Source of the DNA: Geobacter metallireducens GS-15
GTDB lineage: Bacteria; Desulfobacterota; Desulfuromonadia; Geobacterales; Geobacteraceae
Direction: 5' to 3'
Assembly: GCF_000012925.1 (NCBI RefSeq)
Contig: NC_007517.1
Coordinates: forward strand, 2,610,001-2,642,000
Length of the DNA: 32,000 bases
Below are positions 1-16,498 of the stretch, piece after piece. A program made the translations under genes and the position numbers. A model generated the notes under the pieces. The model saw nothing but the letters and a program-made list of their open reading frames with translations. It had not been told where the DNA came from and did no database searches. Each line of letters opens with the position of its first letter. The first letter of the stretch is position 1.

Positions 1-790
1 TGACGCCACCGACGAAGATACCGCTGTGGCAGCTGCCACACCCCAGCAGAGCTGTATGGATCTTATGGCTGAAGAATGCATCGCTTTTCGCGAAGGTCAC
101 ATCCCTGACAGCCGTATGACACCGGCCGCAGTCCCCCTTGACCGAGAAGGCGGTACTGCCGTTGTGACAACCGCCGCACGACTGCTGGGTCTCCATCTCC
201 AGCATGGTGTAGCGCTTGCTTTTGGGGCCGGCCACAAAGAGCTTGCTGTGGCAGTCGCCACAGACATGGCCGAATCCCAAGTGGGCAGCGTGGCTGAAGG
301 TGGCGTCGGCAGCAAAAGGGATATCCCGCACCGTGTGGCACTTGGTGCAGTCCCCCTTGACCGAGAAGGCGGTTTTGCCGTCGTGGCAGGCACCGCACGA
401 ACGTCCCCCTTCCATCTCCTTCATGGTAATGTGGGGGTTATCGGTACGGGCGCCGAAGATGGCGTTGTGGCAGTCGGCGCAACCGTAGGCGCCGAGCCCC
501 AGGTGGAATTTGTGACTAAAAATGACGGCGCCGAAATTGGGGATATCGACCGGCACCTCCTTTGTCACGTGGCAGCGGGTGCACTCGCCGAGGGCGAAGG
601 CTCGCTTCGCATTGTGGCAGGCGCCGCAGGACTTGCCCGCCTCCATCTCCTTCATGGTCACCGGCGCCGACTTGGTGCCGATCGTGAAGATCTTGTTGTG
701 GCAGAGGGTGCAGTTGTTGCCGAGGGCCTTCAGGTGGACGGGATGGCTGAAGTTAATGGCACCGGCGGTGTCGGTCTTGAAGGTAACAAC
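1..790 (-). repeat. Tandem in-frame coding repeats (c7 domain units, period 219-231 nt)
   Basis: The 24-nt string gtcccccttgaccgagaaggcggt occurs at 131 and 350, an offset of 219 nt (73 codons). The string gtggcagg occurs at 383 and 614, an offset of 231 nt (77 codons). The protein-level repeat FSVKGDC..CH is identical in units 2 and 3. Confidence 0.8.
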
Positions 791-862
791 CTGGTAATCC
801 TTGGCAAAGAGGAGCACCGGCAGAAGGAGGAGCAGCATGGCGGGAATGAACAGGCGTTTCAC
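1..862 (-). CDS. Multihaem c-type cytochrome, polymer of cytochrome c7-type trihaem domains (3' end beyond left edge of window)
   Basis: Not in the supplied ORF track because it runs off the window edge. Reverse-complement translation starts at GTG 862, with GGAG 7 nt upstream and an in-frame ATG at 838. It gives a signal peptide, VKRLFIPAMLLLLLPVLLFA, followed by 10 CXXCH haem motifs: CTLCH, CGACH, CTRCH, CADCH, CGACH, CTKCH, CGDCH, CGGCH, CGRCH, CGSCH. The motifs fall in repeated 73-77 aa units of the form FSH..H..C..CH...TM.EME.G.SCG.CH.G..AF....C..CH. This is the PpcA/c7 domain pattern known from Geobacter poly-c7 cytochromes such as GSU1996. There is no stop codon before position 1. Confidence 0.9.
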   Translation of the reverse strand, partial: MKRLFIPAMLLLLLPVLLFAKDYQVVTFKTDTAGAINFSHPVHLKALGNNCTLCHNKIFTIGTKSAPVTMKEMEAGKSCGACHNAKRAFALGECTRCHVTKEVPVDIPNFGAVIFSHKFHLGLGAYGCADCHNAIFGARTDNPHITMKEMEGGRSCGACHDGKTAFSVKGDCTKCHTVRDIPFAADATFSHAAHLGFGHVCGDCHSKLFVAGPKSKRYTMLEMETQQSCGGCHNGSTAFSVKGDCGRCHTAVRDVTFAKSDAFFSHKIHTALLGCGSCHSGIFVGGV

Positions 863-880
863 GGGAACTCCGAACAATTT

Positions 881-1264
881 TTAGCCGATTCGTAGCAATT
901 CCCTTGCCACGGCAAGGATTTTGCCGGCCTGAATCGGTTTCGTGAGATAGTCGTTGGCCCCGAGGGCAAGGCCGCGCTGGCGGTCCTCGGCAGCCCCCTC
1001 GGTGGTAATGATCACGACAGGGATGTGCCTCAGGGACGGATCGTTGCGGACAAGGCTCACGAGCTTCAGGCCATCCATGATCGGCATATTGATATCGGTA
1101 AATATCAAGTCAAAACTATCCCCTCCCAGCTTTTTCAGGGCATCAACGCCGTCGGTCGCCTCCACCAGCGCAACGCCAGGGAGCCGCCGCAGCGTGAAGG
1201 AGATAAGCTGCCGCATGGTGGGCGAGTCTTCTACGACAAGTATCCTCTTATCGGACATAGTCAT
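881..1264 (-). CDS. cheY: CheY-like single-domain response regulator (last che gene of the operon)
   Basis: Receiver motifs are present: ILVVEDS, FTDINMPIMDG, VVIITTEG, LTKP. The track ORF starts at TTG 1279. I prefer ATG 1264 or 1258, which sit downstream of a GGAG. The stop is TAA at 881-883. Confidence 0.9.
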   Translation of the reverse strand: MTMSDKRILVVEDSPTMRQLISFTLRRLPGVALVEATDGVDALKKLGGDSFDLIFTDINMPIMDGLKLVSLVRNDPSLRHIPVVIITTEGAAEDRQRGLALGANDYLTKPIQAGKILAVARELLRIG

Positions 1265-1283
1265 GGATCTCCGGTGCAATAGG

Positions 1284-2117
1284 CTACTTCGTCAGGAGAT
1301 TGATGAATCCCTGCATGGTGGAGCGCTTGCGCTCCGAATCCGAGTAAAGCCTGGAACTGAATATGGCGGTTGCCGCATGGCCGGCAAGGAGTGTGAACAG
1401 TTCATAGTCCACCGGCACAAAGGCTTTTTTCTGGATCAGGAGCTTGTAAATGACGATGACTCCGATCACTTGATCCTTGATCTTGAGGGGTATGCAGACC
1501 ATGGGATTCGAGAGGTCTCGCACGTATCCCGCCGGATCCTCGAGGAAGTGGCTCTCGCCGGTAGCGGCGATGGCCCCGATGGTCCCCTCGCCGGGCCGCA
1601 CCTTCGGCACATCATCAAGGGAAATGCCCTCGGCGGCAACGGCGCCCAGCAGGCCGGCCTTCTCGTCGATGAGCATGACGGCGAATTCCTCGGCCCCGAT
1701 CAGGTTGATGATGATCTCGGTGATGACCTTGAGAACGTCATCAAAATCGAGAATGGAGTGGAGTTGGTAGCTGGCTATGTAGAGGTTTGCCAGATTGTTG
1801 TTTTCCTCTTCGATTTCCACATAGCGGGTGGCGAAATCATTGTTCTCAGCCTCAATCTGCCTGATGCGGCCGAGAATCTCGTCCTTCTCCCGCTCCAACT
1901 CCTCGATGCGGGCGGCGAGAAGCCGGTTTTCCTCGACAAGGGAAGCCGGAGCCCCTCCCTTGCGCTGGTGTTCCTCCAGCTGAAAAATCCGATATCGAAG
2001 CCGCTCGTTCTCCTTGAGGAGATCCTGGGTAAATTCCGCGCCCTTCTTGAAGAGCTGGAGGAATTCGTCGGCCCGCACATGCATCCCTTTTTCATCACTC
2101 TTGTCATCCATCGACAT
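1284..2117 (-). CDS. Coiled-coil plus GAF domain protein
   Basis: The N-terminal ~110 aa are heptad-rich (LKENERLRYRIFQLEE, IEELEREKDEILGRIRQIEAENN, IEEENNNLANLY). The C-terminal ~160 aa look GAF-like (ITEIIINLIGAEEFAVMLIDE...GEGTIGAIAATGES...VCIPLKIKDQVIGVIVIYKL). I place the start at ATG 2117 (GGGAG 6 nt upstream), because the track start at 2231 overlaps cheB. Confidence 0.8.
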   Translation of the reverse strand: MSMDDKSDEKGMHVRADEFLQLFKKGAEFTQDLLKENERLRYRIFQLEEHQRKGGAPASLVEENRLLAARIEELEREKDEILGRIRQIEAENNDFATRYVEIEEENNNLANLYIASYQLHSILDFDDVLKVITEIIINLIGAEEFAVMLIDEKAGLLGAVAAEGISLDDVPKVRPGEGTIGAIAATGESHFLEDPAGYVRDLSNPMVCIPLKIKDQVIGVIVIYKLLIQKKAFVPVDYELFTLLAGHAATAIFSSRLYSDSERKRSTMQGFINLLTK

Positions 2118-2181
2118 GACTTGCTCCCAGCACCACACTTGTTTATACGGCGCGGCGGTTACGCAGCGGACCCTCGGCCTG

Positions 2182-3264
2182 CTAATCAAGGTCGGTGGCC
2201 ACTCCGCAACGCATACGGATTTCCCGCGCAATCAGATCGAGGGGTACCACCTTATCAACCACACCCGTGGCGATGGCCTCCCTCGGCATTCCAAACACCA
2301 CTGCCGAACTCTCGGCTTCGGCAAGGGCTTGTCCTCCCGCGCCTTTGATGGCCCGCACCCCCCGGCTCCCATCGTTCCCCATGCCCGTAAGCACTACGCC
2401 AAGGGTCCGCGGTCCAAAGACTTCCGCACAGGAGGCAAGCATGGCGTCGACCGATGGGATGTAGCGATCCTCGGGAGATGGTTTGCGCACCCTCACCACC
2501 ACTGAGCCGGAACTCTTCTCGAACACCATGTTGTGGCCGCCGGGAGCAATCAGCACCCGCCCCGGCCACACCGTATCGCCGTCGGCCGCTTCCTTGACCT
2601 CGAAAACGGAGAGGCGGTTGAGGCGCTCCGCGAAGGTTCGCGTGAAACCGGCGGGCATGTGTTGAGAAATAACGATCGCCAGGGGAAGGGCCTCGCGGAA
2701 CGAAGAGAGAATCCGCTGGATGGCGGGGGGGCCGCCGGTGGAAGAACCGATGGCCACCACATCGAGACGGCACGGCACCACACGTCGCGGCTCCGCTTCC
2801 GCCTTTTTCGGGGCGACAGGAGGGGGAGCCAAAACCTCCACTTTCTCACGGCGGATGATCTCCTTCATGTTCAGGGAAAAGACGCCCCGCACCTTCTGCT
2901 GGATATCGTCGGTTATGGTAAGGAGTTCCTCGGAAATCCCCTGGCTCGGCTTGGCGACGAAATCGACCGCTCCCAGTTCAAGAGCCTTGAAGACCTTCTC
3001 GTCATCACTCTTGGCGCTGATCACAATGACCGGTGTCGGACAGTACCCCATGATGATCCGCAGGAGAGTGAAGCCGTCCATCTTGGGCATCTCGAGGTCA
3101 AGGGTCACGAGGTCGGGCTTCAGATCAATGACTTTTCTGATCCCCTCCTCGCCGTCGTTGGCGTATCCCGCCACCACCACCTCGGGCATGCTTTCAAGCA
3201 TTTTGATAATGGCCCGCCGGTTGAAGGCGGAATCGTCGATGACGACAACCCTGATTTTTCTCAT
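2182..3264 (-). CDS. cheB: Protein-glutamate methylesterase/glutaminase CheB (receiver + methylesterase)
   Basis: N-terminal receiver motifs [18 protein letters not shown]. Catalytic Ser/His/Asp contexts are present: [25 protein letters not shown]. The ATG at 3264 overlaps the cheR stop as ATGA. Confidence 0.95.
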
Positions 3265-4136
3265 AATCCACCCCCTGCCCCGCCCGGGAAGGGCTTCTGG
3301 TAGACCATGTCGTTCTTGAAGTGTTTAAGGGTGAAGGCCGTGGAGATATTCATGAGCGATTCGGAGTGACCCAGGAGGAGATATCCCCCTTCGTGCAGGG
3401 TCCGGTAAAAGGAGTCAATCACCTTCCGCCGTGCCAGCTGGTCGAAGTAGATGATGACGTTGCGGCAGTATATCACGTCCATGCAGCCCAGCAGCGCGAT
3501 GCGGTTCGCGTCGAGGAGGTTCAGGTGGCTTATGGTGACCAGTTCCCTCACCTTGTCGTTCACCCGGTACATTCCGTCCTGTTCGGTGAAGTAGCGACGG
3601 ATGTAGCTGTCGTCGGTCACCCGGAAGGAAGACTTGCCGTAGAGACCCTTGCGGGCCTGCTGAATCACCCGCTGACAGATGTCGGTGCCGATAATTTCCA
3701 CCTGCCAGCCGGCGAAACCGCCCATTTCCAGAAGGAGCATGGCGATTGTGTAAGGCTCTTCACCGCTGGAGCAGCCGGCGCTCCAGATGCGGAGCGTCCG
3801 GTCGCCGCTCTTCATTTTCATCGCGCGCAGAGCGGGAATGATCTCGTCGGTAAACGCCTTGAGCTGGAACGCCTCGCGGAAGAAGTAGGTCTCGTTGGTG
3901 GTGAGGAGATCCATGATATCCGAGAGTTCCTGGTCCCTGTTCCGGTTATACTTGAGGAAGTGGTAGTAGTCCCTGAACCCTGCGAAATGGTGAAACTGCA
4001 GACGCTTGGAGAGGCGCTTTTCCAGCAGGTAGGTTGCATCGCTATCAAAGTAGAGGCCACAATGATTGTAGATGAGATCCCGAATCAGGCGGAACTCCTC
4101 ATCGGATAGCGGTATTTCCGGTTCCAGGGTGAACAT
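3261..4136 (-). CDS. cheR: Chemotaxis protein methyltransferase CheR
   Basis: CheR N-terminal helical region ([25 protein letters not shown]) and SAM-binding region ([33 protein letters not shown]). ATG 4136 overlaps the upstream stop as TAATG and has GGAAGGTGG upstream. GTG 4145 is an alternative start. Confidence 0.93.
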
Positions 4137-6136
4137 TACCGCCACCTTCCGAGAAGGTCCCGGAGCTCACCCCGTACGAGTTCGTCCTGCTCGGCTTCCA
4201 GAGCCTTGCGCAGGTGCTCGGCCGCTCCCTCGCCGAGAAGATGCGCCATGGCACGGGCAGTGGCACACCGCACGTCCCAGTGGGGGTGTCGGAGAAGGCT
4301 GTCCCGGTACTCGTCAATCCAGGAGGAACCGCTGCGGGAGAGGATGTCGATGGCAGATTTCACCACCTCCTCGTCACTGCTCTCAAGGCCCCTTCTCACG
4401 AGCAGAAGTGCCCGGTCGTCCCCAAGACCGGCCAAGGCTTCGAGCGCAGTGATAAGCACGACCCCATCCGCCTTGCCCAACAGATCCTCGATGGCATCAA
4501 GCGCCCGCTCGCCGCCCATCTTGCCGAGGCTCCTGAGGGCAGCGCAGCGGACCCACGGATCTTCATCGTTGAGCGAAAGGATCAGAGAGTCCACGCTCCC
4601 CTCACCCTGCATCTCACCGAGTCCCGTAGCGGCGGCGATCCGCACATCAGGGTCCTCGTCCACCAGCGCCATGACCAGGTTCCCGAGGCATTCGGGAAGG
4701 CGCAGGCCCGCAAGAGCGGTCACAGCACTACGCCTCACAAGGGGGCTCTCATCCTTCACCAGAAGGGCAAGGCGCTCCGGATCGGCCAGAGCCGCGAATA
4801 TCCGCGCGGCATCCTGTCGGTTATCGGGGTTGGGCGACGTGGAAAGAGTCCTGGCGATGGCAGCCACCTTCTCCCGGCCGGTGGGGGCAAGACGCACAAG
4901 AGCATCCACGGCCCCCTTGCGCACGTCTTGCTCGCTGTCGTCAAGCAGCACTCGAATCTGATCCAGCAACCCGGTAAGGCCGATCTTACCTGCAGCCACC
5001 ACAGCGGCATTGCGGACCGAGTACCGGTTACTCGCCATGGCCTCGCCAAGATACGGCGCCGCACCACCAAAGCCCATTTCTCCCCACAGATAAATGATGA
5101 AGGTTTTTTCCTCATCATCGGCTTTGGAGAAAGCTGCAAGCAATGCGGCCATCCCACCCTCTCCCATAATCCGGAAACCCTGGAGACACGTGCGCCGAAG
5201 CCGCTCGTCGCGGCATCCCTCCAGAAGGGGCAGGGCCGCACGCTCATCACCGATAAGCGCCAGAATCCCCACAAGTGACTCTCTCACCTGCCGATCGGTG
5301 GTATCAAGGGATGCGATGAGATCATCCACGCACGGTTTCCCCCTGAAACCCGTGAGATGGTCATCAACCTCCCGTGCGTACACCGCGGGGAGTCTCCCCC
5401 TGAGGCGCGCCAGGGCGCAGGCCGCCGCTTCACGGACTGCCCGGACACGGTCCTGGAGCCCCTCCAGGATTACAGGTACGGCATCACGGTCTCCCACTGC
5501 GCCAAGGCACTCTATGACGGGACGCTTCAGGAGAGGATCCGCTACAAGGGGAGCAAACACCGGGATGGGAACCGGTTCCCCAATCCGGGTAAGGGCGCCG
5601 AGAACCGAAAAGCGGAACCAGACATCACCCGTTGCCAGGGCCTCAACCAGAGGCGCAACCGCGCGAGGGTCGCCGATCTTGCCGAGATTCTCCGCCGCTG
5701 CGGCAGAAACGTTGGCATCGGGATCCTGCAGTGCTTCCACGAGGGATGGGATGGATGAACGGTCGCCGATGCTGCCGAGGATGTCGGCGACAAATTTCCG
5801 TACGTCATGATCAGGGTCTTTGAGGTGGTCAAGGAGAAGCGGCACACTCCGGGATTCCAGGCGCTCCAGGGCCTCCACCGCCGAGTTCCGGAGCCCGGCG
5901 TTGTCGGAGGATGCAAGCAGGCCGATGAGCCCGTTCAGGGTTGAGTCATCAAGGGGCACGGTGAGAAGCGTGTTGACCGCCTCCTTGCGTACCCGCCAGC
6001 TCCCGTCCCCCATGGCTGAAAAAAAGAGTTCACGACTCCTGGCGAGAGGATGGCGACCCAGGCCGATGACGGCCTGTCGACGCTCCTCGTCGTCGGCACC
6101 AGTAAGTTGAGTACGTATGTGTTCAAGATCGCCCAC
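4136..6136 (-). CDS. Large HEAT-repeat (PBS-lyase HEAT-like) protein, about 666 aa
   Basis: About 18-19 iterations by eye of a ~31 aa unit of the type D.D..VR..A..AL..(I/L)G. Examples are DHDVRKFVADILGSIG, DPDVRIAAATGLGEMQG, DPWVRCAALRSLGKMGG, HWDVRCATARAMAHLLG. I saw no enzymatic motif. I prefer GTG 6136, which has AGGAG 7 nt upstream. The track start GTG 6175 lies in the loop of a hairpin. Confidence 0.85.
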   Translation of the reverse strand: MGDLEHIRTQLTGADDEERRQAVIGLGRHPLARSRELFFSAMGDGSWRVRKEAVNTLLTVPLDDSTLNGLIGLLASSDNAGLRNSAVEALERLESRSVPLLLDHLKDPDHDVRKFVADILGSIGDRSSIPSLVEALQDPDANVSAAAAENLGKIGDPRAVAPLVEALATGDVWFRFSVLGALTRIGEPVPIPVFAPLVADPLLKRPVIECLGAVGDRDAVPVILEGLQDRVRAVREAAACALARLRGRLPAVYAREVDDHLTGFRGKPCVDDLIASLDTTDRQVRESLVGILALIGDERAALPLLEGCRDERLRRTCLQGFRIMGEGGMAALLAAFSKADDEEKTFIIYLWGEMGFGGAAPYLGEAMASNRYSVRNAAVVAAGKIGLTGLLDQIRVLLDDSEQDVRKGAVDALVRLAPTGREKVAAIARTLSTSPNPDNRQDAARIFAALADPERLALLVKDESPLVRRSAVTALAGLRLPECLGNLVMALVDEDPDVRIAAATGLGEMQGEGSVDSLILSLNDEDPWVRCAALRSLGKMGGERALDAIEDLLGKADGVVLITALEALAGLGDDRALLLVRRGLESSDEEVVKSAIDILSRSGSSWIDEYRDSLLRHPHWDVRCATARAMAHLLGEGAAEHLRKALEAEQDELVRGELRDLLGRWR

Positions 6137-6166
6137 TGACGGTCTCCTTGTCGAACTGTCAGGATT

Positions 6167-6183
6167 CCCGCACACACTGCGGG
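6167..6183 (-). other. Intercistronic hairpin between cheW and the HEAT-repeat gene
   Basis: On the minus strand: CCCGCA-GTGTG-TGCGGG, a 6-bp stem with a 5-nt loop. No U-tract follows, so it is not a typical terminator. It may be a processing or stability element. Confidence 0.3.
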
Positions 6184-6201
6184 TATCCTCTTTTTCCGGA
6201 A

Positions 6202-6699
6202 TTATCGGGCGGGAGTTGCGCCCGATGCCCGTGAGAAGCCGGCGAGAGCCGATGTTTCACGGCTGTTCAGAATAGTGTCAAGATTGAGAAGCATGATGAG
6301 GCTGTCGCGGACAAGACAGACGCCGATCAGGTACTCGGTGCTGATCCCCTCGGCCACATGGGGAGGGGGCTTGATGTCATGGGCTTGGACCGTAACGACC
6401 TCGGTGACGTCGTCCACGACGAGCCCCACGAGTTGGCGGGACACGGTTACCACCAAAAGCCGTGATTCCTCCAGCGGAGCGCGTTCAGGAAGCTCGAACC
6501 GCTTGCGCAGATCCATAACCGGAATGACCGTGCCGCGAAGATTGATTACCCCTTCCACAAAGGACGGTGTCCTGGGTAGCTTCGTCAGGTGCTGAGGCTT
6601 GAGGATTTCCTTGATCCTCATGATGTCAGCGGCAAAATTCGCATCACCCAGACGGAAACAGGCAAGCTGAATTTCCTGGATGTCGGTTTCCATCATCAT
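6202..6699 (-). CDS. cheW: Chemotaxis coupling protein CheW
   Basis: A single CheW domain: LACFRLGDANFAADIMRIKEI, PSFVEGVINLRGTVIPVMDLRKRF, VGLVVDDVTEVV. AGGGGGG lies upstream of an ATGATGATG start. Confidence 0.93.
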   Translation of the reverse strand: MMMETDIQEIQLACFRLGDANFAADIMRIKEILKPQHLTKLPRTPSFVEGVINLRGTVIPVMDLRKRFELPERAPLEESRLLVVTVSRQLVGLVVDDVTEVVTVQAHDIKPPPHVAEGISTEYLIGVCLVRDSLIMLLNLDTILNSRETSALAGFSRASGATPAR

Positions 6700-6747
6700 C
6701 CCCCCTGGGGCAGCACATTTAAATGGTTTCTGTCTGGCTCCCTCCCG

Positions 6748-7119
6748 TTAAGGAGAGAGGAGATCCTGAATTATCTCAATGATCTTTGCCGACTTGAACG
6801 GTTTGGTGACGTAGGCCGACGCGCCCGCCGCCATCCCTCGCGCGCAGTCCTGCTCGCTCTTCTTGGCCGTAAGCATCACGACGGGAGTGTGTGCCGTTTC
6901 GGGATTCTGCTTGATGCGCCGGCAGACCTCAAAGCCATCTATCTCCGGAAGCATGATGTCGAGGATGACCAGATCGGGCCTGGTCAAGCCGACCTGTTCA
7001 AGGGCGGCCACCCCGTCGGTGGCACCCACCACTTCATACCCCCTGGACGTGAGGAGAATGCTTTCAAGCTTGAGAAGGCTTTCCTCATCCTCGACGATCA
7101 GAATTTTTTTCTTCGTCAT
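6748..7119 (-). CDS. Stand-alone response regulator receiver protein (non-CheY-like subtype)
   Basis: Receiver motifs KILIVEDE, LVILDIMLPEIDG, PVVMLTAK, YVTKPF. ATG 7119 has AAAGGG 7 nt upstream. The track start ATG 7140 has no SD and remains an alternative. Confidence 0.88.
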   Translation of the reverse strand: MTKKKILIVEDEESLLKLESILLTSRGYEVVGATDGVAALEQVGLTRPDLVILDIMLPEIDGFEVCRRIKQNPETAHTPVVMLTAKKSEQDCARGMAAGASAYVTKPFKSAKIIEIIQDLLSP

Positions 7120-7157
7120 GTCTGGACCCTTTCGCGCCATTAAAATGGGGCACGATT

Positions 7158-7874
7158 TCAGAGCAGCAACACGTCAAGAACCTTTTCCATTGCGAGCATA
7201 ATGACGATCTTTCCGTCATGGCGTCCGATACCGGAGACAAATTCACGATCTATGCCATCGAGAACCGCAGGGGGCTGTTCCACGGTGTCTGCAGCAATCC
7301 GAACCACCTGGGTCACCTCGTCCACAAGAATACCACAGAGACCATCACCTTTCTTCACCACGATGATGCGCTCTTTCCCTCCCCCTTCTTCCCGGCACAG
7401 GCCAAGGCGCTCCCGGAGGGCGAATACGGGGATAATGATGCCGCGCAACGAGAGCACACCGGCGATGAAGGGGGGTGCATGGGGAACCTCCGTTGTCTCC
7501 CGGGGCTTGATGATCTCCTTCAGTTCCATGATGTCGATGCCGTAAATCTCGTCGGCAACCCTGAAGCAAAGAATTTCGAGGGAAGACGAAGCTTGGACCG
7601 GGAGGTCGGCATCGTCTTCAACAGGGAGAACCTCATCAACAAGGGCAGACTTCCGCCCTTCGAGGATAACGGTCAAGGGGTCGCGAACAACCGGCGGAGC
7701 AAAGCTGGCCTGGATGATCTCATCCTGGGGAAAGGACTCGTCATAGTGGCCATCATCGGTCTCCTCCAGCGGAGGAGCGGAGGGGGTAACCGGTGATTGC
7801 GCAGCCTGGGGTTCCTCGCGTCGCCCTTCGCGTTCCCTTTGGGCCTTTTTCCTGATTTCGGCTATATCCATCAT
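7158..7874 (-). CDS. CheW-domain protein with ~95 aa acidic/Pro-rich N-terminal extension
   Basis: C-terminal CheW domain: ILCFRVADEIYGIDIMELKEI, PPFIAGVLSLRGIIIPVFALRERL, CGILVDEVTQVV. I place the start at ATGATG 7874, with AAGGA upstream. The track start at 8120 overlaps the upstream ATPase gene. Confidence 0.85.
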   Translation of the reverse strand: MMDIAEIRKKAQREREGRREEPQAAQSPVTPSAPPLEETDDGHYDESFPQDEIIQASFAPPVVRDPLTVILEGRKSALVDEVLPVEDDADLPVQASSSLEILCFRVADEIYGIDIMELKEIIKPRETTEVPHAPPFIAGVLSLRGIIIPVFALRERLGLCREEGGGKERIIVVKKGDGLCGILVDEVTQVVRIAADTVEQPPAVLDGIDREFVSGIGRHDGKIVIMLAMEKVLDVLLL

Positions 7875-7893
7875 GGCAGTCGATCCTTTGACC

Positions 7894-8697
7894 TCAGTAG
7901 AGGCTCGCTTCGTCACGCAACTCTTCCACCAGCGATGCATCGATCCAGGCAGAGTCCTTCCCGAACCCCACCAACAGCGCATTGGTCGCCAGGATGTTGA
8001 TCTTGCGCGGCACCCCGCCCGACAACTCGTAAATCCTCCGGATGGCATCCGGAGAGAAGAGCCCCTGGGGTCCGCCGGCCACCTCCACCCGGAAGTCCAC
8101 ATACTCGAGGGTTTCCTCAAGGCTCAGGGGCTGGAGGTGGTAGTGCATGGCAATCCGCTGCCGCAGGGCTTCATGGGCCGGCTCGGACAGTATCTGCCGC
8201 AGCTCCGGCTGCCCCATGAGAATAACACTCATGAGGTTGCGGTCGTCCAGCTGAAAGTTGGTCAGGAGCCTGATCTCGTCGAACACCTCCTGGTCGGGGA
8301 TCAGCTGGGCCTCGTCAATGATGATGACCGGGCAGCGCTTCTCCCCCTCGAGCCGGTAAACCGCCTCGGTGAGCTGCCGCAGGAGTTCGTCCTTGGCCGC
8401 GGCCGGCTCAGCGATGCCGAGACTGCGGGCCACCGTGCGGAGGAATTCCACGGCCGAGAGTCGCGGGTTGACGATGAAACAGAAACAGCCGTCATTCCCC
8501 ACGGCGTCCATGAGCGCCCGGGAGATGGTGGTCTTGCCGCAGCCGATGTCGCCAGTGAGGAGCGCCAGTTCCCGCTCCTCCACCGCATACTGGAGCCGTG
8601 CCAGGGCTTCCCGGTGTCCCCGCGACAGAAAGAGGTAGCGCGGGTCCGGGGTCTTCGAGAACGGCTTTTCGGTCAGACCGTAGAACTCCCTGTACAT
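7894..8697 (-). CDS. ExeA/GspA/MshM-like AAA+ ATPase (AAA_22-type)
   Basis: N-terminus MYREFYGLTEKPFSKTPDPRYLF is typical of ExeA-like proteins. Walker A is GDIGCGKTT and Walker B is VIIIDEAQ. GQPEL and GGVPRKIN motifs are also present. The ATG at 8697 directly abuts the cheA stop (TAG|ATG, zero gap). Confidence 0.85.
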   Translation of the reverse strand: MYREFYGLTEKPFSKTPDPRYLFLSRGHREALARLQYAVEERELALLTGDIGCGKTTISRALMDAVGNDGCFCFIVNPRLSAVEFLRTVARSLGIAEPAAAKDELLRQLTEAVYRLEGEKRCPVIIIDEAQLIPDQEVFDEIRLLTNFQLDDRNLMSVILMGQPELRQILSEPAHEALRQRIAMHYHLQPLSLEETLEYVDFRVEVAGGPQGLFSPDAIRRIYELSGGVPRKINILATNALLVGFGKDSAWIDASLVEELRDEASLY

Positions 8698-10770
8698 CTA
8701 CCCTCCGCTCCGGAACGCCTCGCCGATGATCCCCCCCACGTCGAGCACGAGGATCGTCCGCTGGTCCCCCAGGTCCGCCGCTCCGGTGATCCCCCGGTAC
8801 CCCTTGAACATGTCCCCCAGGGATTTGATGACAATATCCTGCTGCCCCATGAGATCGTCGACAATGACCCCGAGCCGTTTCTCCGCCACCCCCACCACCA
8901 CCACGTAGAACTCGGCGGAATCCGGTTTTGTGCGCGGGACGCCGAAAAAGCGCTCCAGCCGCACGAGCGGCAGGGTCGTTTGCCTGAGCTGGTAGACCTC
9001 CTTGCGCTCCACGGTATCGATGTCATTCTCGGTGACGATGATCGTTTCAAGCACCGACGTGATCGGGAGGGCGTAGGTGCGCCCGGCGGTGGAAACCAGC
9101 AGCGCCTTGATGATGGCCAGGGTGATGGGAAGGGTGATGATGACCTTGCTCCCCTGGCCGAAGATGCTCTCGATGTCCACCATCCCCGAGACGGCGGCGA
9201 TGTTGTTTTTCACCACATCCATGCCGACGCCGCGGCCCGACAGCTCGCTCACCTTGTCGGCGGTGGAAAAGCCGGGGAGAAAGATGAAATCGAGGGCCTC
9301 CCGGTCGGATACCCCTTCCAAGGTCTTGATGAGCCCCTTTTCCAGGGCCTTCTTCTTCACCTTTTCGATATTGAACCCGTGCCCGTCGTCCGACACTTCG
9401 ATGACGACGTGGTTTCCCTTCTGGTAGGAGGAGAGACGGATGGTTCCCCGCTCGGGCTTGCCGGCGGCCACCCGCTCTTCCGTGGTCTCCAGTCCATGGT
9501 CGATGGCGTTGCGGATGATGTGAACCATGGGGTCGGCGATATCCTCGATGATGAGCTTGTCCAGCTCAGTGTCCGCGCCAAAGGTCTTGAGGTCGACCTT
9601 TTTCCCCTGTTCCCGGGAGACCTTCCGGACAATGCGGGCCATCTTCTCGAAAAGTTGCCCAACCGGGATCATCCGGATCTCCATGACCCCCTTCTGCAGT
9701 TCCGTGAGCTTGCGGTCGAGCCCCTTGGCCGCCTTGCCCAGCTCGATGGCCAGGGACGAGAACCCTTCGAGTCTCATGCGTGTCGCCAGCATCGAGATGA
9801 TGGAATGGGAGAGGACCAGCTCGCCCACGATGTTCATGAGATCGTCCAGCTTGCCGATGTCGACCCGCACCGTCCGGCTCATGCTCTTGGCGGTCATGTC
9901 GTCGCCCTGGCCGACAGGAGCGGAGACCTCTGCCGGAGCCGAAGTCGGAACCGACGCCTGCGCTGTAGCGGGGATTGCCACGGCAACACCGGCCGCGATG
10001 GCCGAGGGTGGAGAGGCAGCCGCACCGATCCGGGTGACCTCGACATTATCCCGGTCAATGAGTCCGGTAACATCATCAAGCGCGAGGTCGGTGCCGTAGA
10101 GGATCTCGAAGTCGATCATCGACTCGGGAGTGGCACTGGCACTGGGGAGAGTACTCACCACCTCTCCAGACTTCTTCAGGACTTCCGTGATCTCCCCCAG
10201 ATCCTGATCGAAGGACATGAGGTTGAAGGAGGCATGGATGGAGTAAATGGTCCGCCCCTTCTTCACATTCTCCAGCAGCCGGTGTTCCTCGTATTCGGTG
10301 AGGGAGTTGAGGACCTTCTCCGGCAGGCCGAGCTTCTGGAGGGGTGACTCGCCGCCACTCTCCTGGGCTGTGGCGCAGTCATTGAGCCGCTGAATCGCGT
10401 CGGCAATGGCGGAAGAGAAGTTTTCTCCGGTGCCGAGCCCCCGCACCACGGAACCGAGAAGTTCCATGGCATCGAAGAGGATGTTCATGGTGGCATTGGT
10501 GAGGGGTATTTTGCCGAGGCGAAGTGAATCGAGAAGGTTTTCCAGGTTATGGGAGAGCTGCTGGATGTCGGCGAAACCGAACATGCCGGCGAGCCCCTTG
10601 AGGGAGTGGGCGCCGCGGAAAATGGCATTGAGCAGGTCCGGATCACACTCCCCGCTGTCGGCGCAGTCGCCGAGGGTTCCCAAGTCGGTGCTCAGTCGAT
10701 CGACAATCTCTTCGGCTTCGGCCAGGAAGTCTTCCACGGCCCTGCCGGACGTATCATTTGAATTTGCCAT
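8698..10770 (-). CDS. cheA: Chemotaxis histidine kinase CheA (P1 HPt, dimerisation, HATPase, CheW-like P5; no fused receiver)
   Basis: HPt motif FRGAHSLKGLAGMFG. Dimerisation region RVDIGKLDDLMNIVGELV. ATPase boxes HIIRNAIDHG, VSDDGHGF, GRGVGMDVV. The C-terminal P5 region has ADLGDQRTILVLDV. Confidence 0.95.
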   Translation of the reverse strand: MANSNDTSGRAVEDFLAEAEEIVDRLSTDLGTLGDCADSGECDPDLLNAIFRGAHSLKGLAGMFGFADIQQLSHNLENLLDSLRLGKIPLTNATMNILFDAMELLGSVVRGLGTGENFSSAIADAIQRLNDCATAQESGGESPLQKLGLPEKVLNSLTEYEEHRLLENVKKGRTIYSIHASFNLMSFDQDLGEITEVLKKSGEVVSTLPSASATPESMIDFEILYGTDLALDDVTGLIDRDNVEVTRIGAAASPPSAIAAGVAVAIPATAQASVPTSAPAEVSAPVGQGDDMTAKSMSRTVRVDIGKLDDLMNIVGELVLSHSIISMLATRMRLEGFSSLAIELGKAAKGLDRKLTELQKGVMEIRMIPVGQLFEKMARIVRKVSREQGKKVDLKTFGADTELDKLIIEDIADPMVHIIRNAIDHGLETTEERVAAGKPERGTIRLSSYQKGNHVVIEVSDDGHGFNIEKVKKKALEKGLIKTLEGVSDREALDFIFLPGFSTADKVSELSGRGVGMDVVKNNIAAVSGMVDIESIFGQGSKVIITLPITLAIIKALLVSTAGRTYALPITSVLETIIVTENDIDTVERKEVYQLRQTTLPLVRLERFFGVPRTKPDSAEFYVVVVGVAEKRLGVIVDDLMGQQDIVIKSLGDMFKGYRGITGAADLGDQRTILVLDVGGIIGEAFRSGG

Positions 10771-10779
10771 GGATAACCC

Positions 10780-11145
10780 TCAGGCCGTGTACTGTTTGAT
10801 CAACTCCTGCAAACGCGCCGGATCGAACGGCTTCACCAGATATTCGTTGGCACCGAGAGCGAGCCCCTTTTCCCGGTCACGCTCGCTCCCTTCGGTGGAT
10901 ATGATGAAGAGTGGGATATGGCGGTAATTTTCACTTCCACGGACAAAGCTCACAAGCTCAAGCCCGTTGATGTCGGGCATATTGATATCGGTTATGATCA
11001 GGTCAACGGGTTCCCGAGGCAGAAGCCGAAGGGCTTCGAACCCGCTCGCCGCCTCGGAAACCAGATATCCGCCGAGGGACTCGATGGTCGCCACCAGAAG
11101 GGACCGCATGGTCGACGAGTCTTCCGCTATAAGGATTTTCTTCAC
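10780..11145 (-). CDS. cheY: CheY-like single-domain response regulator
   Basis: Receiver motifs ILIAEDS, ITDINMPDINGLE, FIISTEG, LVKPF. The GTG start at 11145 overlaps the upstream stop as GTGA. Confidence 0.92.
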   Translation of the reverse strand: MKKILIAEDSSTMRSLLVATIESLGGYLVSEAASGFEALRLLPREPVDLIITDINMPDINGLELVSFVRGSENYRHIPLFIISTEGSERDREKGLALGANEYLVKPFDPARLQELIKQYTA

Positions 11146-12326
11146 GTTACACTCCGAAGTTTACTTTCCAGCAGCGCTTTTTCCATGACCAGCCCGGCTT
11201 GGGACAGAAAAATCTCCAGGGCCTCCGTCCCGACGATTGGCCTGCGCTCGGCCTGATTGTCACCGTAGAGGACAGCGATCACCTCTCCACCACTTACGAT
11301 CGGCCCGAGGAAAACCTCGTGGGGAATCTCCACGCCGATACGGCCGAACAGATAACGATTCCATTCATTCGCTTCGGGACGGACCACTGCCGGGTGTTTC
11401 GCTTCAATAACCCCGCTGAACAGCGATGGCTCTCCTCTCGGTATGCGGAGCGACCTGATCCGCTCGTCGGCACCGCCTCCGCGGTCGTCGAGGCCAAACT
11501 GACCGAGCCCCACAACCTCTTCCTTCAGTACCCTGAAGATTACCGCCCGGTCCATGAACTCCGCGGCAAGCCGCAGGACCAGCAGGGTAATGCCGCATCC
11601 CAGCTCGGGATTGTGCAGCTCTTCGAGCATCCCCCGCAACAGGGTCATCCGGTCAGCGTGGCTGTAACCCTCCTCACCGGTCTTTGCCAGCTCCTCTCCC
11701 ATTTCGAGACGAAGCTCCTCACCGATGTTGATGTGCCCCGGCGGCGGCGCAGGCACCACGGTACGCCCTTCAGGAGGCTGGGGAACCCGGAGGGGCTCCT
11801 CATCCCGGGGAATATCCCTTCTGCGGCGGTCCTGGTTCGCCTCCGCCATCAGGAGCCGGGGATTGAGCCCCTGTTCCAGCATGAACTGGAGGGGATCCAT
11901 CCTGATGGTGCCGGCAGTGGCCACGTTGTCCTGGAGAATGAATTCGAATGTCCCTTCCACCCAGGCAAAGAGCGTATAGACTACCCGCTCCACCTGCTCC
12001 CGGGCCACATCTTCGACAACGGTGGCAGGCACGCCGAATCGTCGCACCAGGATCGATCCGAGCCGTTCCTGGAATCCCTCGCTTTCCTGGCATGCAAGGG
12101 CTGACCGCAGGGTTGCGAGATCGAGCTTCCCCTTGCGGATCAGGACCTCGCCGATATTCTCCAGGAGGGTGCTGGAGGTGGCCTGGATCACCTGACCGAG
12201 ACGGAAGACGATGGTCCCTTCACGCCCCCGGCTCTTGATCCGCAGAATCCCCGACTTTGATGAAAGGCTGATGATCTGTAAGATCTCACCCAGCCCCAGA
12301 TCTTCAAGACTCCCGACAAGGCTCAT
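11142..12326 (-). CDS. DUF4388 (PATAN-like) N-terminal domain protein with C-terminal GAF-like domain
   Basis: The N-terminus SLVGSLEDLGLGEILQIISLSSKSGILRIKSRGREGTIVFRLGQV matches my memory of the DUF4388/PATAN signature. A Pro/Arg-rich linker follows. The C-terminal ~150 aa look GAF-like (ITLLVLRLAAEFMDRAVIFRV...GGEVIAVLYGDN). This is the first gene of the che-like operon. Confidence 0.75.
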   Translation of the reverse strand: MSLVGSLEDLGLGEILQIISLSSKSGILRIKSRGREGTIVFRLGQVIQATSSTLLENIGEVLIRKGKLDLATLRSALACQESEGFQERLGSILVRRFGVPATVVEDVAREQVERVVYTLFAWVEGTFEFILQDNVATAGTIRMDPLQFMLEQGLNPRLLMAEANQDRRRRDIPRDEEPLRVPQPPEGRTVVPAPPPGHINIGEELRLEMGEELAKTGEEGYSHADRMTLLRGMLEELHNPELGCGITLLVLRLAAEFMDRAVIFRVLKEEVVGLGQFGLDDRGGGADERIRSLRIPRGEPSLFSGVIEAKHPAVVRPEANEWNRYLFGRIGVEIPHEVFLGPIVSGGEVIAVLYGDNQAERRPIVGTEALEIFLSQAGLVMEKALLESKLRSVT

Positions 12327-12374: not shown

Positions 12375-12404
12375 ATCATAAACTACTCGTCCGGTTCAAG
12401 TAAA
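12375..12404 (-). promoter_or_regulatory. Candidate sigma70-type promoter for the che-like operon
   Basis: On the minus strand: TTTACT (12404-12399), an 18-nt spacer, then TATGAT (12380-12375), about 50 nt upstream of the ATG at 12326. The -35 is a weak match, and readthrough from der is equally possible. Confidence 0.25.
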
Positions 12405-12410
12405 GCACGT

Positions 12411-13730
12411 TTACTCCCGGCGATCCCTGCCCCGGAAGATGATCTTGAGCGGGCTGCCGGTGAAATCGAACGCCTCGCGGAACTTGTTCATGAGGTACCG
12501 CTCGTAGGAAAAATGCACCCCCTCCGGCTGATTGGTGAACAGTACGAATGTCGGCGGCTTCGTCCCCACCTGAGTGGCGAAGTAGAACTTCACCCGCCGC
12601 CCGTGGGAAAGGGGGGCGTGGTGTTTCTCCACCGCCTCGGAGAAGACCCGGTTCAGGTCGGAGGTGCTTACCCGCTTGGAATACTGGGCCATGACCCGCT
12701 CCACCTCCTCCATGACCCGGTTGATCCGCTGGCCACTCTTGGCTGATACAAATACTATCGGCGCGAATGAGAGATACTTGAATTCCGTCTTGATCTGGTC
12801 GACGAATTTCCCAAGGGTGCTGTTGTCCTTGGCCAGGGTATCCCACTTGTTGACCACGAAGATGCAGGCCTTGCCCGCCTCAAAGGCGTAGCCGGCGATC
12901 CGCTCGTCCTGTTCCGTCACCCCTTCCTCGGCATTGATGATGATGAGCACCACGTCGGCCCGCTCGATACTCCGCAGGCTGTCCACCACGCTGTACTTCT
13001 CCAGCTTCTGGGTGGTCTTACCTTTGCGCCGGATGCCGGCCGTGTCGATGAGGAGGTAGCGCTTCTTGTTGCAGGCGAAGAGAGTATCGACGGAATCCCG
13101 GGTGGTGCCGGGGGTGGGGTTGGCCACCACCCGCTCGAAACCGAGGAGCCGGTTCACCAGGGACGACTTCCCCACGTTGGGGCGCCCCACCACGGCGATC
13201 CGGGTGATATCCTCGTCATCAAGGCGGGTCGAGCTTTTGGGAAGGGCCGCCACCACCTCCTCCATGAGGTCGTTCACCCCCCGGTTGTGCTCGGCGGAGA
13301 TGGTGTGAAGGGTGCCGATCCCCAGGGTGTAGAAATCGGCCGCCTCGTTCTCGATCTTTTCGCCGTCCACCTTGTTGACCACGAAGAAAACGGGCTTTTT
13401 CACCCGACGGAGCATCTCCACCACCTCCACGTCGGATGGGGTGAGCCCGGCCCGGCCATCCATGAGGAAGATGATGACGTCCGCCTCCTCCATGGCGAGC
13501 TGGGACTGCTCCCTCATCTGCTGCAGGAGCCGGTCTTCGCTCACCGGCTCGAAGCCGCCGGTGTCGATGAGAATGAACGGCGCCTCGAAGCGGGTGACGG
13601 TTTCGTAGTTCCGGTCCCGGGTGACGCCGGGCATGTCGTCGACAATGGCCTTGCGGCGCCCCACGAGACGGTTGAACAGGGTCGATTTCCCCACGTTGGG
13701 GCGACCCACTATGGCAACGAGTGGCATCAT
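12411..13730 (-). CDS. der: Ribosome-associated GTPase Der/EngA (tandem G domains + KH-like)
   Basis: Two G domains are present: [12 protein letters not shown] with DTGG and NKVD, then [12 protein letters not shown] with DTAG and NKWD. The ATG overlaps the era stop as ATGA. Confidence 0.96.
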
Positions 13731-14623
13731 GTGTATCCAAGCTCCTTCAGCATCCGCTCGTCTTCGCTCCAGTCCTTGCGGACCCGGACGAAGAGTTCCA
13801 GGAAAACTTTCGTATTGAGTAGTTTCTCGATCTCGACCCGGGCTGCCGAGCCGATCTTTTTCAGCATCGCCCCCTTTTTGCCGATGATGATCCCCTTCTG
13901 GGAATCCCGTTCCACGGTGATGGTGGCGGCAATGGAGACGAGGCCTCCGTCCTCCCGCTCCTTGAAGCTGTCCACCTCCACGGCGGTGGCGTAGGGGACC
14001 TCGTCGCGGGTCATGCGAAAGACCTTCTCCCGGATGATCTCCGCGGCAATGAAGCGCTCCGGCACGTCGGTCAGGATGTCGTCGGGAAAGTAGACCGGTC
14101 CCTGGGGGAGGGCCTTGCGAACCAGTTCCACCAGATGGTCGACACCGTCGCCGGTGCCGGCCGAAATGGGCACGATCTCCCGGAATGGATAGCGGTCCTT
14201 GTAGGCGGCGATCCGCTCCAGCACCGCCCCCTTCTCCGTCAGGTCCACCTTGTTGATGACAAGGAAGACCGGCGCCGTGGCCCCGGCAAGAACGTCGATG
14301 ATCTCCTGCTCCTGCTCCCCCGGCTTCTGATTAGCCTCAACAAGGAAGAGGACCAGGTCCACCTCCCGGATGGCGGACAGGGCCACCTCCACCATGTACT
14401 TGTTGAGCCGCGAGCGGGCCTGGTGGATTCCCGGCGTGTCGATGAAAACGATCTGGGCGCCGGGGACGTTGTGGATCCCCTGTATCCGGTTACGGGTCGT
14501 CTGGGGCTTGTCCGAGGTAATAACAATCTTTTCGCCGAGAATCCGGTTCAGCAGAGTCGATTTCCCTACGTTGGGGCGCCCGATGATGGACACGAATCCG
14601 GATCGGAACGGGTTATCTGACAA
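13727..14623 (-). CDS. era: GTPase Era
   Basis: G domain motifs [20 protein letters not shown], and a C-terminal KH domain ([15 protein letters not shown]). I prefer TTG 14623, which has AAGGAG 7 nt upstream and gives 8 residues before GF, as in E. coli Era. The track start TTG 14656 overlaps the upstream stop. Confidence 0.95.
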
Positions 14624-14652
14624 AGTGCAACTCCTTTCGTGAAACGTGCAGG

Positions 14653-15693
14653 TCAATCCAGCACGTTGCCGGCAATGGTTCCGCCGGCATAAACAACTTC
14701 GAGATCGTAGGGGGAGAGGTGCGAACTGCCGGTGACCCGCGTCACCGCCACGCCGGACCGCTCCCTGAGACGGACGAGATTACGGCGGTGCTGCCCCGCC
14801 ACGTCGGACAACCGCCGGGGCGCGCAGACAACCACCAGATCGGAACCGGCGGGAATCCCCGCTGTCAGTCGCTGGAGAAGATCGAAAAAGAGTTCGCTTT
14901 CCGCAAGCTGCCGAAATGCCGGATGCCACGGACCAGCCAGGACCGTCCCGGGCCGCTCCAGTTCCTCCGTGGGCTGGAGACCAATCCGGATCACCGGCAC
15001 GCCGGCAGAGATACACCGGCGGAGCATGGCCGCGCAGAGGGAGACGGCATCGTCGAGGGCCAGGGGGGTGTAGTCCCCGGAGCGCCAGAGTTCCGCCAAC
15101 CGGGTCCCCTCCACAACCAACGTGGGATAGATGCGCATAAAGGCCGGAGACAGGGCAAGGACCCGTTCGAGGGATTCAAGGGTCGAATCTGCGGTATCGC
15201 CGGGAAGCCCCGGCATCAGTTGGGCGCCGACGTCGATGCCGGCCCCGCAAAGGGACGCGAACGCCTGCTCCACATGGGCCGCCCCATGCCCCCTGCCGGC
15301 CGCGGTGAGAACAGCATCATCCATGGACTGGACCCCCAACTCCACGGTGGCCACGCCACGGCTCGCGAGAAAGCGCGCCGTTTCACCGTCAACCGCATCG
15401 GGCCGGGTGGAAAGCCTCACCCGGGCCACGCTCCCCGTTGCCATGAGGGGCTGCAGCGGCGCCAGGAGCCGTTCCTGGTCGCTCCGAGGGAGGCTCGTGA
15501 AGGTGCCGCCATAGAAGGCCACTTCCAGAGGCCTCCCCCGTCCGGACGCGGCATGGCGGTCGATGGTGGCGATCATCTCCTCCGGCTCAGGAAGCCCGGG
15601 CCGCTGGCCGGAAATCCGCTCCTGGTCGCAGAAGACACACTGATGGGGACATCCCTGGTGGGAGATAAAAAAGGGGACAATGAGCGGCTTCAT
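14653..15693 (-). CDS. Radical SAM domain protein (ELP3/COG1243-like core, no acetyltransferase domain)
   Basis: The N-terminus [18 protein letters not shown] contains a CX3CX2C 4Fe-4S/SAM motif. YGGTF and ELGVQS-type core strands are present. The ATG at 15693 overlaps the rnc stop as ATGA. Confidence 0.85.
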
Positions 15694-16430: not shown

Positions 16431-16438
16431 GACCAAAC

Positions 16439-16468
16439 ACTATAACCTGAATCCGCCGTATTTATCAA
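16439..16468 (-). promoter_or_regulatory. Candidate sigma70 promoter for rnc operon (possibly yielding a leaderless or near-leaderless mRNA)
   Basis: On the minus strand: TTGATA (16468-16463), an 18-nt spacer, then TATAGT (16444-16439). Only 8 nt (gtttggtc) separate the -10 from ATG 16430. There is no SD. Confidence 0.45.
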
Positions 16469-16498
16469 TAATTATGCGACTTGTCGGGGATTTTTGCC

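Follow-up and report, generated by a model that had tools for sequence, protein, structure and literature searches.

The window analysed here is a 32,000-nucleotide (32-kb) stretch of the genome of Geobacter metallireducens GS-15 (NC_007517.1, positions 2,610,001 to 2,642,000), and our subject is a cluster of chemosensory (che) genes at window positions 881-12326. The listing of open reading frames (ORFs) and Pfam scans show twelve consecutive, tightly packed minus-strand genes there, in the order and with the domains that an original prediction, made from the sequence, had given for them. A thirteenth gene, for a cytochrome, runs past the edge of the window. Of ten window proteins submitted to an exact-sequence look-up, seven are identical to entries of G. 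metallireducens GS-15/RCH3, among them ABB32529, ABB32535, ABB32536, ABB32538, and ABB32539, which establishes the organism. The features are given below in window coordinates, with their Pfam matches.

Candidate promoter, 12375-12404 (-), sigma-70-like, TTTACT-18-TATGAT, in the 84-nucleotide gap between der and gene 01, from a consensus scan
Gene 01, 11142-12326 (-), PATAN/DUF4388 protein with a C-terminal GAF fold (ABB32538); DUF4388 3.6e-24, weak GAF_2
Gene 02, 10780-11145 (-), single-domain CheY-like receiver; Response_reg 7e-27
Gene 03, 8698-10770 (-), CheA with Hpt, H-kinase_dim, HATPase_c and CheW domains (ABB32536); orthologue of EsnC (GSU2222)
Gene 04, 7894-8697 (-), short ExeA/GspA-like AAA_22 ATPase of 267 amino acids (aa) (ABB32535); AAA_22 2.5e-23; orthologue of GSU2221
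Gene 05, 7158-7874 (-), N-extended CheW, 238 aa; CheW 1e-35; orthologue of EsnB (GSU2220)
Gene 06, 6748-7119 (-), stand-alone receiver (the 123-aa form is ABB32533); Response_reg 8e-31
Gene 07, 6202-6696 (-), second CheW, of canonical length; CheW 5e-39
Gene 08, 4136-6136 (-), HEAT-repeat protein of ~666 aa; HEAT_2 8e-86 (10 or more units), HEAT_PBS 1e-29
Gene 09, 3261-4136 (-), CheR methyltransferase; CheR 3e-56, CheR_N 4e-13
Gene 10, 2182-3264 (-), CheB methylesterase with an N-terminal receiver (ABB32529); CheB_methylest 3e-63, Response_reg 1e-22
Gene 11, 1284-2117 (-), coiled-coil and GAF protein; GAF_2 3e-13, GAF_3 6e-13
Gene 12, 881-1264 (-), third CheY-like receiver; Response_reg 5e-28
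Gene 13, 1-868 (-), partial, continuing past the window edge; signal peptide and Cytochrome_C7 polymer; Cytochrome_C7 9e-63

After refinement of the start codons, the intergenic gaps range from 0 to 65 nucleotides (nt), in keeping with the close packing originally described (gaps of 65 nt or less and several start/stop overlaps). Three such overlaps are present: between genes 01 and 02 (GTGA), where the GTG start of gene 02 overlaps the gene 01 stop codon, between the HEAT gene and cheR (ATGA), where the stop codon of gene 08 overlaps the cheR start, and between cheR and cheB (ATGA). For gene 05, a start at 7874 is likely, and not at 8120, because the latter lies inside the ATPase gene; the N-terminal extension of this CheW, at first put at ~180 aa, is corrected to ~100 aa. 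On inspection of the sequences, all four receiver (REC) domains have an intact acidic pocket, phospho-acceptor Asp, Thr/Ser, and Lys, with the Asp57, Ser87, and Lys109 equivalents in place in gene 02 and the phospho-acceptor residues intact in gene 12, and CheA retains HSLKG at its histidine site. The CheB of gene 10 scores 382 bits against NCBIfam NF001965 (cutoff 293). The candidate promoter comes from a consensus scan that returned 3 sites against 2.9 expected by chance, so that the promoter and terminator scan stands at chance level. Gene 13 starts 12-18 nt past the stop of gene 12 on the same strand, its translation carries repeated CxxCH motifs in a polymer of c7-type multihaem cytochrome domains, and it is probably co-transcribed with the che cluster. 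Rfam and tRNA scans of the window gave no matches, and from the lack of an Rfam match we place no riboswitch ahead of the cytochrome gene.

The original prediction drew attention to a cluster that encodes the adaptation enzymes CheR and CheB with no methyl-accepting chemotaxis protein (MCP), and both sides of this statement are borne out. CheR and CheB are present by Pfam, and MCPsignal had no match in any Pfam-scanned ORF of the window. For tblastn we used three MCP queries, namely one enteric-type signalling domain and the class-40H domains of Gmet1641 and Gmet2478, the latter two with sequences from the supplementary material of Tran et al. 2008 (PMC2577667). The enteric-type query matches Pfam MCPsignal at 212 bits and picks up the Geobacter domains at E 9e-24, so we regard its sensitivity as adequate. 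Nothing better than E 0.5 was obtained in the window and 83 related loci, and nothing at the E <= 1e-3 cut-off in five further loci, while a regular expression for the hairpin tip gave 0 matches when the window and the first 83 loci were translated in all six frames. The absence of an MCP domain from the twelve proteins and their flanks therefore holds by Pfam, tblastn, and tip motif, and it extends to 88 related loci. "MCP-less" is nonetheless true of the locus only: the receptor is probably encoded elsewhere in the genome.

The related loci also show how stable the cluster is. Eighty Geobacterales loci were taken as the best 80 matches in a one-genome-per-species scan with a profile of the ATPase (ATPase identity 63-95%), and components were counted by tblastn of all window proteins against 81 sequences, i.e., the window and the 80 loci (the cytochrome was counted without the window). 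The common order is der, PATAN, CheY, CheA, ATPase, N-extended CheW, (REC), CheW, HEAT, CheR, CheB, (coiled-coil GAF, CheY), (c7 cytochrome), with the variable members in parentheses. CheY (gene 02), CheA, the N-extended CheW, and the second CheW were each found in 80 of 81 sequences, CheR in 77, the HEAT protein and CheB in 76 each, and the PATAN protein in 70, in a set that contains many truncated contigs and for which the tblastn table does not always distinguish among the CheY and CheW paralogues. The coiled-coil GAF protein of gene 11 occurs in 36/81 and is hence optional, with the CheY of gene 12 travelling with it, and about half of the related loci have a REC gene of the gene 06 type at the same place. 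The ATPase is found in all 88 related loci, for which it or its relatives served as the search query, and it adjoins cheA wherever cheA lies within the stored stretch. Because the order is conserved in 80 Geobacterales genomes, the cluster is not a product of chance. The c7 cytochrome follows the cluster in 28/80 loci and is an optional neighbour; being present in only that many, it is not a core feature, and the suggestion that the downstream cytochrome is an output of the pathway is unlikely to be correct.

Beyond these loci, synteny is kept in five more distant ones, again with no MCP, and the same module, with distant short ATPases, occurs in a Desulfuromonas, in several genomes labelled "Deltaproteobacteria bacterium", and in one 2-Mb genome of unknown phylum. 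The conservation across the Desulfuromonadales by which the prediction was to be judged was thus found, with the order kept in the 80 Geobacterales loci, in Desulfuromonas, and in unclassified lineages. Two loci (L081 and L082 in our numbering) are collinear with the window, with protein identities of 57-84% (CheA 79%, ATPase 82%, N-extended CheW 57%). Their gene count reproduces GSU2224-GSU2212, with GSU2222, GSU2221, and GSU2220 falling on CheA, the ATPase, and CheW, and it is by this match of gene numbers that we take them to be Geobacter sulfurreducens.

Several variations on the common order were observed among these relatives. In L085 (5608-12507 of the stored stretch; CP070698.1, a 2.03-Mb genome of an unclassified bacterium), the module consists only of PATAN, CheY, CheA, ATPase, N-extended CheW, and a Zn-ribbon-REC gene. 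It has no HEAT, CheR, CheB, or GAF protein, and genes for FHA, VWA, and Ser/Thr kinase proteins follow. In L081 (12541-13491), L084 (11725-12675), L086 (12627-13550), and L087 (12717-13604), the second CheW gene and the HEAT gene are separated by a Zn-ribbon-REC gene resembling GSU2217. Most relatives carry this gene; it is absent from the window, where the CheW and HEAT genes are 26-65 nt apart (6136-6202). Of the two near-identical G. sulfurreducens-type genomes, one (AP028967.1) has its cheB annotated as two genes, with 167 aa for the REC part and 162 aa for the methylesterase part (L081 16388-17328 compared with L082 16388-17503), so that the adaptation enzyme may have undergone a frameshift or deletion there.

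A cluster of this kind has been described before. In their comparative account of Geobacter chemotaxis genes, Tran et al. (2008, BMC Genomics 9:471, PMC2577667) defined a beta group of che-like clusters with cheA, cheW, cheB, and cheR and no mcp, comprising G. sulfurreducens cluster 5, G. metallireducens cluster 2, and G. uraniireducens cluster 5, with further members in Myxococcus, Stigmatella, Anaeromyxobacter, and Plesiocystis, and they noted that preliminary knockouts affected the extracellular matrix. The same definition was applied to Desulfuromonas by Guo et al. (2021, PMC8235581), with EsnA homologues in 5/5 of the strains studied. The other mcp-less type, the alpha group, has a stand-alone HD-domain protein and is restricted to Geobacteraceae (Tran et al. 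2008). In the window, Pfam matches lie above the gathering score for all four of CheA, CheW, CheB, and CheR, the searches above place no mcp in the cluster, and the arrangement recurs in Geobacter and in the wider delta-proteobacteria. None of the twelve proteins has an HD domain by Pfam. An alpha-group assignment is accordingly ruled out, and an mcp-less cluster without an HD protein falls in the beta group.

The G. sulfurreducens counterpart has been approached genetically. In a transposon insertion sequencing (Tn-Seq) experiment on electrodes, Chan et al. (2017, J Bacteriol 199:e00340-17, PMC5585712) obtained scores of -2.4 for GSU2220, -2.1 for GSU2221, -2.8 for GSU2222, and -2.4 for GSU1704. 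They named the parts of the network EsnA (GSU1704, an MCP), EsnB (GSU2220, a CheW), EsnC (GSU2222, a CheA), and EsnD (GSU3376, a REC-GGDEF protein). Clean deletions of esnA, esnB, esnC, and esnD were defective on electrodes and normal on Fe(III) oxide and fumarate, and two-hybrid tests showed EsnA binding to EsnB and EsnC (PMC5585712). EsnA is an unlinked, GAF-containing class-40H MCP (PMC5585712), and in the supplement of Tran et al. (PMC2577667) there are exactly two GAF-MCPs, GSU1704 and Gmet1641, with nearly identical methyl-accepting domains. Because of this near-identity, we consider the receptor to be present in G. metallireducens but unlinked. The window has the CheA, ATPase, and CheW orthologues of GSU2222-2220 next to one another and in the same order.

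Taken together, the locus is very probably the beta-group che-like cluster of G. metallireducens GS-15, cluster 2 of Tran et al. (2008), orthologous to GSU2212-GSU2224 and belonging to an Esn-type system that works with receptors in trans. The cluster is therefore already known, from comparative accounts in 2008 and 2021 and partial genetics in 2017. The observation itself is real and well above chance, and the original prediction adds no new object to the published one. What it had proposed in general terms, a non-flagellar Che pathway of alternative cellular function with an unusual, conserved accessory set, is supported.

The prediction went further in letting the two cytoplasmic GAF proteins replace the receptor as input. 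In such a receptor-independent pathway, the PATAN-GAF and coiled-coil-GAF proteins would sense a small molecule and control CheA via the two CheWs, and CheR and CheB would be vestigial or have a substrate other than an MCP. The absence of any MCP within ~10 kb in all 88 loci, including lineages beyond Geobacterales, fits this idea, as do the invariant core of PATAN, CheY, CheA, ATPase, and CheW, the lack of CheR and CheB in L085, and the true GAF fold of gene 01. However, CheR and CheB are intact in nearly all relatives (the 77 and 76 of 81 given above) and are lacking from a single one of the related loci whose gene content was inspected, and we know of no established substrates of these enzymes other than MCPs. 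The coiled-coil GAF gene is optional, and in G. sulfurreducens the unlinked MCP EsnA shares the phenotype and binds this very CheW and CheA (PMC5585712). Furthermore, Geobacter MCP genes are generally dispersed away from che clusters (Tran et al. 2008), so that absence at the locus is the norm and carries no signal. The conserved CheR and CheB, the EsnA data, and the optional gene 11 leave the proposed GAF input unsupported; the receptor-free model is disfavoured, and we give it very little credence.

In the Esn-type pathway that we prefer, signals would enter through class-40H MCPs encoded in trans, above all the membrane-anchored GAF-MCP Gmet1641, an arrangement demonstrated for G. sulfurreducens and extended here to G. 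metallireducens. The N-extended CheW, the second CheW, and CheA would couple to these unlinked receptors in a pathway that does not serve motility. Phosphorylated CheA would pass its phosphate to the three CheYs of the cluster and to CheB and, by analogy with EsnD, to an orphan REC-GGDEF protein, which may raise cyclic di-GMP (c-di-GMP) and thereby promote colonisation of surfaces and electrodes and formation of matrix. From the known functions of their families, CheR and CheB would adapt the unlinked receptors. That EsnB/EsnC-type CheA and CheW, with an unlinked receptor, are required for electrode colonisation is relevant to bioelectrochemical systems and to the way in which cells distinguish electrodes from mineral oxides.

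Some of the accessory proteins can be placed in this scheme with varying certainty. Judging from the G. sulfurreducens Tn-Seq data, the ExeA-like ATPase would be a required core component, and its constant position beside cheA, together with its scoring alongside cheA in Tn-Seq, points to a putative assembly or positioning factor at the kinase. The protein has a Walker A motif (GCGKT) and a Walker B motif (IIIDEAQ), and public sources label it ExeA family. Its score against NCBIfam TIGR03015 is 239 bits, below the cutoff of 324.5, and it lacks the C-terminal transmembrane and peptidoglycan-binding region that characterises ExeA/GspA. In a library-wide profile search, it falls in a clade of short proteins of ~265-287 aa beside the long ExeA/GspA proteins of 550-850 aa. 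An AlphaFold model built from 15 sequences is poor, with a mean predicted local distance difference test score (pLDDT) of 62 and residues 1-60 below 50, and sequence comparison with the PDB returns only generic P-loop matches such as SRP54 and midasin (E ~0.003-0.008), which are uninformative. The N-terminal extension of the gene 05 CheW opens with MxDIAEIRKKA, a motif conserved in 53 sequences. A second conserved patch, RDPL..IL.GR, follows after a variable acidic and proline-rich linker, and the length of the protein varies widely among relatives.

The HEAT protein of gene 08 has repeats of the PBS-lyase type, with NCBIfam scores for NblB and CpcE far below the cutoffs. In L088 (13819-15777), a shortened HEAT part and CheR are joined in one ORF of 652 aa (identities of 38% to the N-terminus of the HEAT protein in the window and of 47.5% for CheR), and this single fused locus suggests that the HEAT protein works with the CheR methyltransferase. 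The HEAT protein would then be a partner of CheR, as this fusion and the translational coupling in the window would have it, or, by analogy with Cpc7 and CheY7, of a CheY. It is possible that the ATPase and the HEAT protein are outputs or adaptors.

The PATAN-GAF protein opens the cluster and invites a different view of the output. Named "Regulator, PATAN and FRGAF domain-containing" in public sources, it consists of a PATAN domain with an alpha-clip insertion, a linker, and a C-terminal GAF fold. With pLDDT values of 70-87 inside the domains, the structure model is of moderate quality, and its C-terminal half matches solved GAF domains (5w10, Foldseek E 7e-8). The four-helix alpha-clip (residues ~55-112, window 11991-12162, minus strand) matches MshEN_N with an hhalign probability of 94.7%, has weak PDB matches to PilF and PilB, scores 23.7 bits against NCBIfam NF053729 (cutoff 38), and is kept as a motif in 45 orthologues. 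The MshEN consensus is a tandem 24-residue RLGxx(L/V/I)(L/V/I)xxG(L/V/I)(L/V/I)xxxxLxxxLxxQ with a 5-residue spacer. Gene 01 departs from it in having Asn or Ser for the first Arg, a 7-residue spacer, and Phe for Gly10 in repeat 2. We also observed that most orthologues are ~560 aa long with a REC domain between PATAN and GAF (alignment A2; L081 5856-7541); the REC has been cleanly lost from a few proteins of 385-437 aa, those of G. metallireducens and of near relatives, leaving a Pro/Arg-rich linker.

That the alpha-clip is akin to the N-terminus of the ATPases of type II secretion and type IV pili is already on record, as is the role of PATAN as the PatA-type regulators' output domain in Synechocystis, where it binds PilB1 and PilC (bioRxiv 10.1101/2021.06.11.447907). 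By analogy with these cyanobacterial regulators, gene 01 would most likely encode an output or adaptor protein in contact with the motor of a type IV pilus or of type II secretion, possibly under modulation by c-di-GMP. One can go further and suppose that the whole system is directed at pili or secretion, with the PATAN protein and the ExeA-like ATPase binding the PilB/GspE motor or a secretin assembly factor and controlling pili or matrix export, and with c-di-GMP not the main output. Its input would overlap with that of the Esn-type pathway and its output would differ. In addition to the PilB1 and PilC contacts, this is consistent with the PATAN(-REC) gene followed by CheY at the head of the cluster, as in cyanobacterial tax/pix, with the homology of the PATAN insertion to the MshE/PilB motif, with the membership of the ATPase in the ExeA/GspA/PEP-CTERM ATPase family, with the extracellular-matrix phenotype (Tran et al. 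2008), and with pilus genes also scoring in the electrode Tn-Seq (PMC5585712). However, in no locus is a pilus or secretion gene linked to the cluster, and the ATPase is without the membrane and peptidoglycan-binding part that defines a functional ExeA. An earlier transposon screen did not recover these genes as attachment mutants (PMC5585712), and a PATAN-motor contact for the delta-proteobacterial proteins would be an argument by analogy. We therefore regard a pilus- or secretion-directed system as possible, if on the doubtful side.

A bolder proposal concerns the alpha-clip itself. Gene 01 might be a c-di-GMP receptor through this insertion, with the GAF domain taking a second ligand and the messenger made by an EsnD-type enzyme feeding back on the complex; with the ATPase and a HEAT scaffold associated with CheR, it might then mark a distinct and widespread class of arrays. 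We think the proposal unlikely to hold as a whole, and to our knowledge no binding of c-di-GMP or another nucleotide by a PATAN alpha-clip has been shown so far. If it were true, c-di-GMP would feed back on the chemosensory complex or on the motor of a pilus or secretion system, and the array class would always have its receptors in trans and depend on an AAA ATPase for assembly.

A conventional flagellar chemotaxis operon, with its receptors elsewhere by happenstance, would also account for the full set of CheA, CheW, CheY, CheR, and CheB seen by Pfam, and G. metallireducens is capable of motility. Among the Pfam-scanned ORFs of the 32-kb window, however, we saw no flagellar or pilus genes, as had been predicted, and there is no linked MCP. 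The cluster is without CheZ, CheC, CheX, CheD, and CheV, and its accessory genes are foreign to flagellar systems. Other clusters have been assigned as the E. coli-like ones (Tran et al. 2008), and the G. sulfurreducens mutants are defective on electrodes and normal on fumarate and Fe(III) oxide (PMC5585712). We find a flagellar role hardly credible.

Several points weigh against the Esn-type assignment or limit how far it can be carried. The label "cluster 2" for G. metallireducens follows the wording of Tran et al. (2008) and not locus tags, and every function given here for G. metallireducens would be a transfer, by orthology, from G. sulfurreducens. The two-hybrid result for EsnA with EsnB and EsnC is a single assay that its authors called preliminary, and EsnD as the direct target of phosphotransfer from EsnC is a hypothesis in Chan et al. 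(2017; PMC5585712). With a PATAN protein that lacks the REC domain and with the Zn-ribbon-REC gene missing, the output could be rewired relative to G. sulfurreducens. Finally, the core in L085, without CheR, CheB, and HEAT, may be able to work without methylation-based adaptation.

Outside the cluster and the cytochrome gene, every Pfam-scanned ORF of the window is a housekeeping gene or a lipopolysaccharide (LPS) or sugar gene. Upstream lies der (12411-13730; ABB32539), the housekeeping neighbour correctly named in the original prediction, with era further on (Pfam). The remaining Pfam-scanned ORFs are tmk, holB, a PSP1 protein, metG, relA/spoT, gmk, yicC, and LPS and sugar genes. The upstream housekeeping block (12411-19254; PSP1-holB-tmk and rnc-radical SAM-era-der) is syntenic with the che cluster in relatives: der is kept in 70/80 and era in 67/80 Geobacterales loci, where the stored flanks reach only part of the block. 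The stretch from holB to der is present in L081-L083 and L086, PSP1 is reached in L087, and the block is absent in L084, L085, and L088. A functional link between the cluster and der was considered and rejected, given that the der/era synteny holds in Geobacterales and Desulfuromonas and not in these last three loci. At the far end of the window, positions 31001-32000 have a G+C content of 41% compared with ~60% elsewhere; they fall within a family-8 glycosyltransferase gene that closes an LPS and sugar-modification block, and may be horizontally acquired surface-polysaccharide DNA.

Among known systems, the beta-group cluster of Tran et al. (2008) is the same object as the cluster in the window, and the difference is nothing substantive: the accessory proteins are not taken apart in the 2008 paper, where the functional data are unpublished observations. 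The Esn network of G. sulfurreducens shares the orthologous CheA-ATPase-CheW trio and the collinearity of the whole cluster, and its EsnA has a counterpart in Gmet1641; it differs in that the G. metallireducens gene 01 is without a REC domain and the Zn-ribbon-REC gene before HEAT is absent. The cyanobacterial Tax and Pix systems likewise open with a PATAN gene followed by a CheY gene and have the same two-repeat alpha-clip insertion, whereas they have their own MCP and a CheA-REC hybrid and no CheR or CheB. Cyanobacterial PatA is a PATAN-REC protein, whereas the PATAN protein of the window ends in GAF and, in G. metallireducens, has no REC.

The Che7 system of Myxococcus xanthus, which also encodes a desaturase, offers a parallel for the HEAT gene. 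In two accounts (PMC11514114, PMC9040617, both citing Darnell et al. 2014), it is a non-motility Che cluster encoding a PBS-lyase-type HEAT protein, Cpc7, which is the binding partner of the single-domain CheY of Che7. The che7 operon has its own soluble receptor, Mcp7, unlike the cluster in the window, and neither an ExeA-like ATPase nor a PATAN protein figures in it; the likeness of the HEAT proteins is one of repeat type. The Che8 system (MXAN_4751-4759; Moine et al. 2014) comes closer, as the only M. xanthus Che operon without its own MCP, and it has two CheWs, two CheYs, a CheA unfused to REC, CheR, and CheB, in an order that mirrors the cluster in the window. No gene lies between cheA8 and cheW8b, so there is no ATPase at that position, and CheA8 is reported to phosphorylate an orphan response regulator, MXAN_4468 (PMC9040617). 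We infer that Che8 is probably the M. xanthus member of the beta group of Tran et al.

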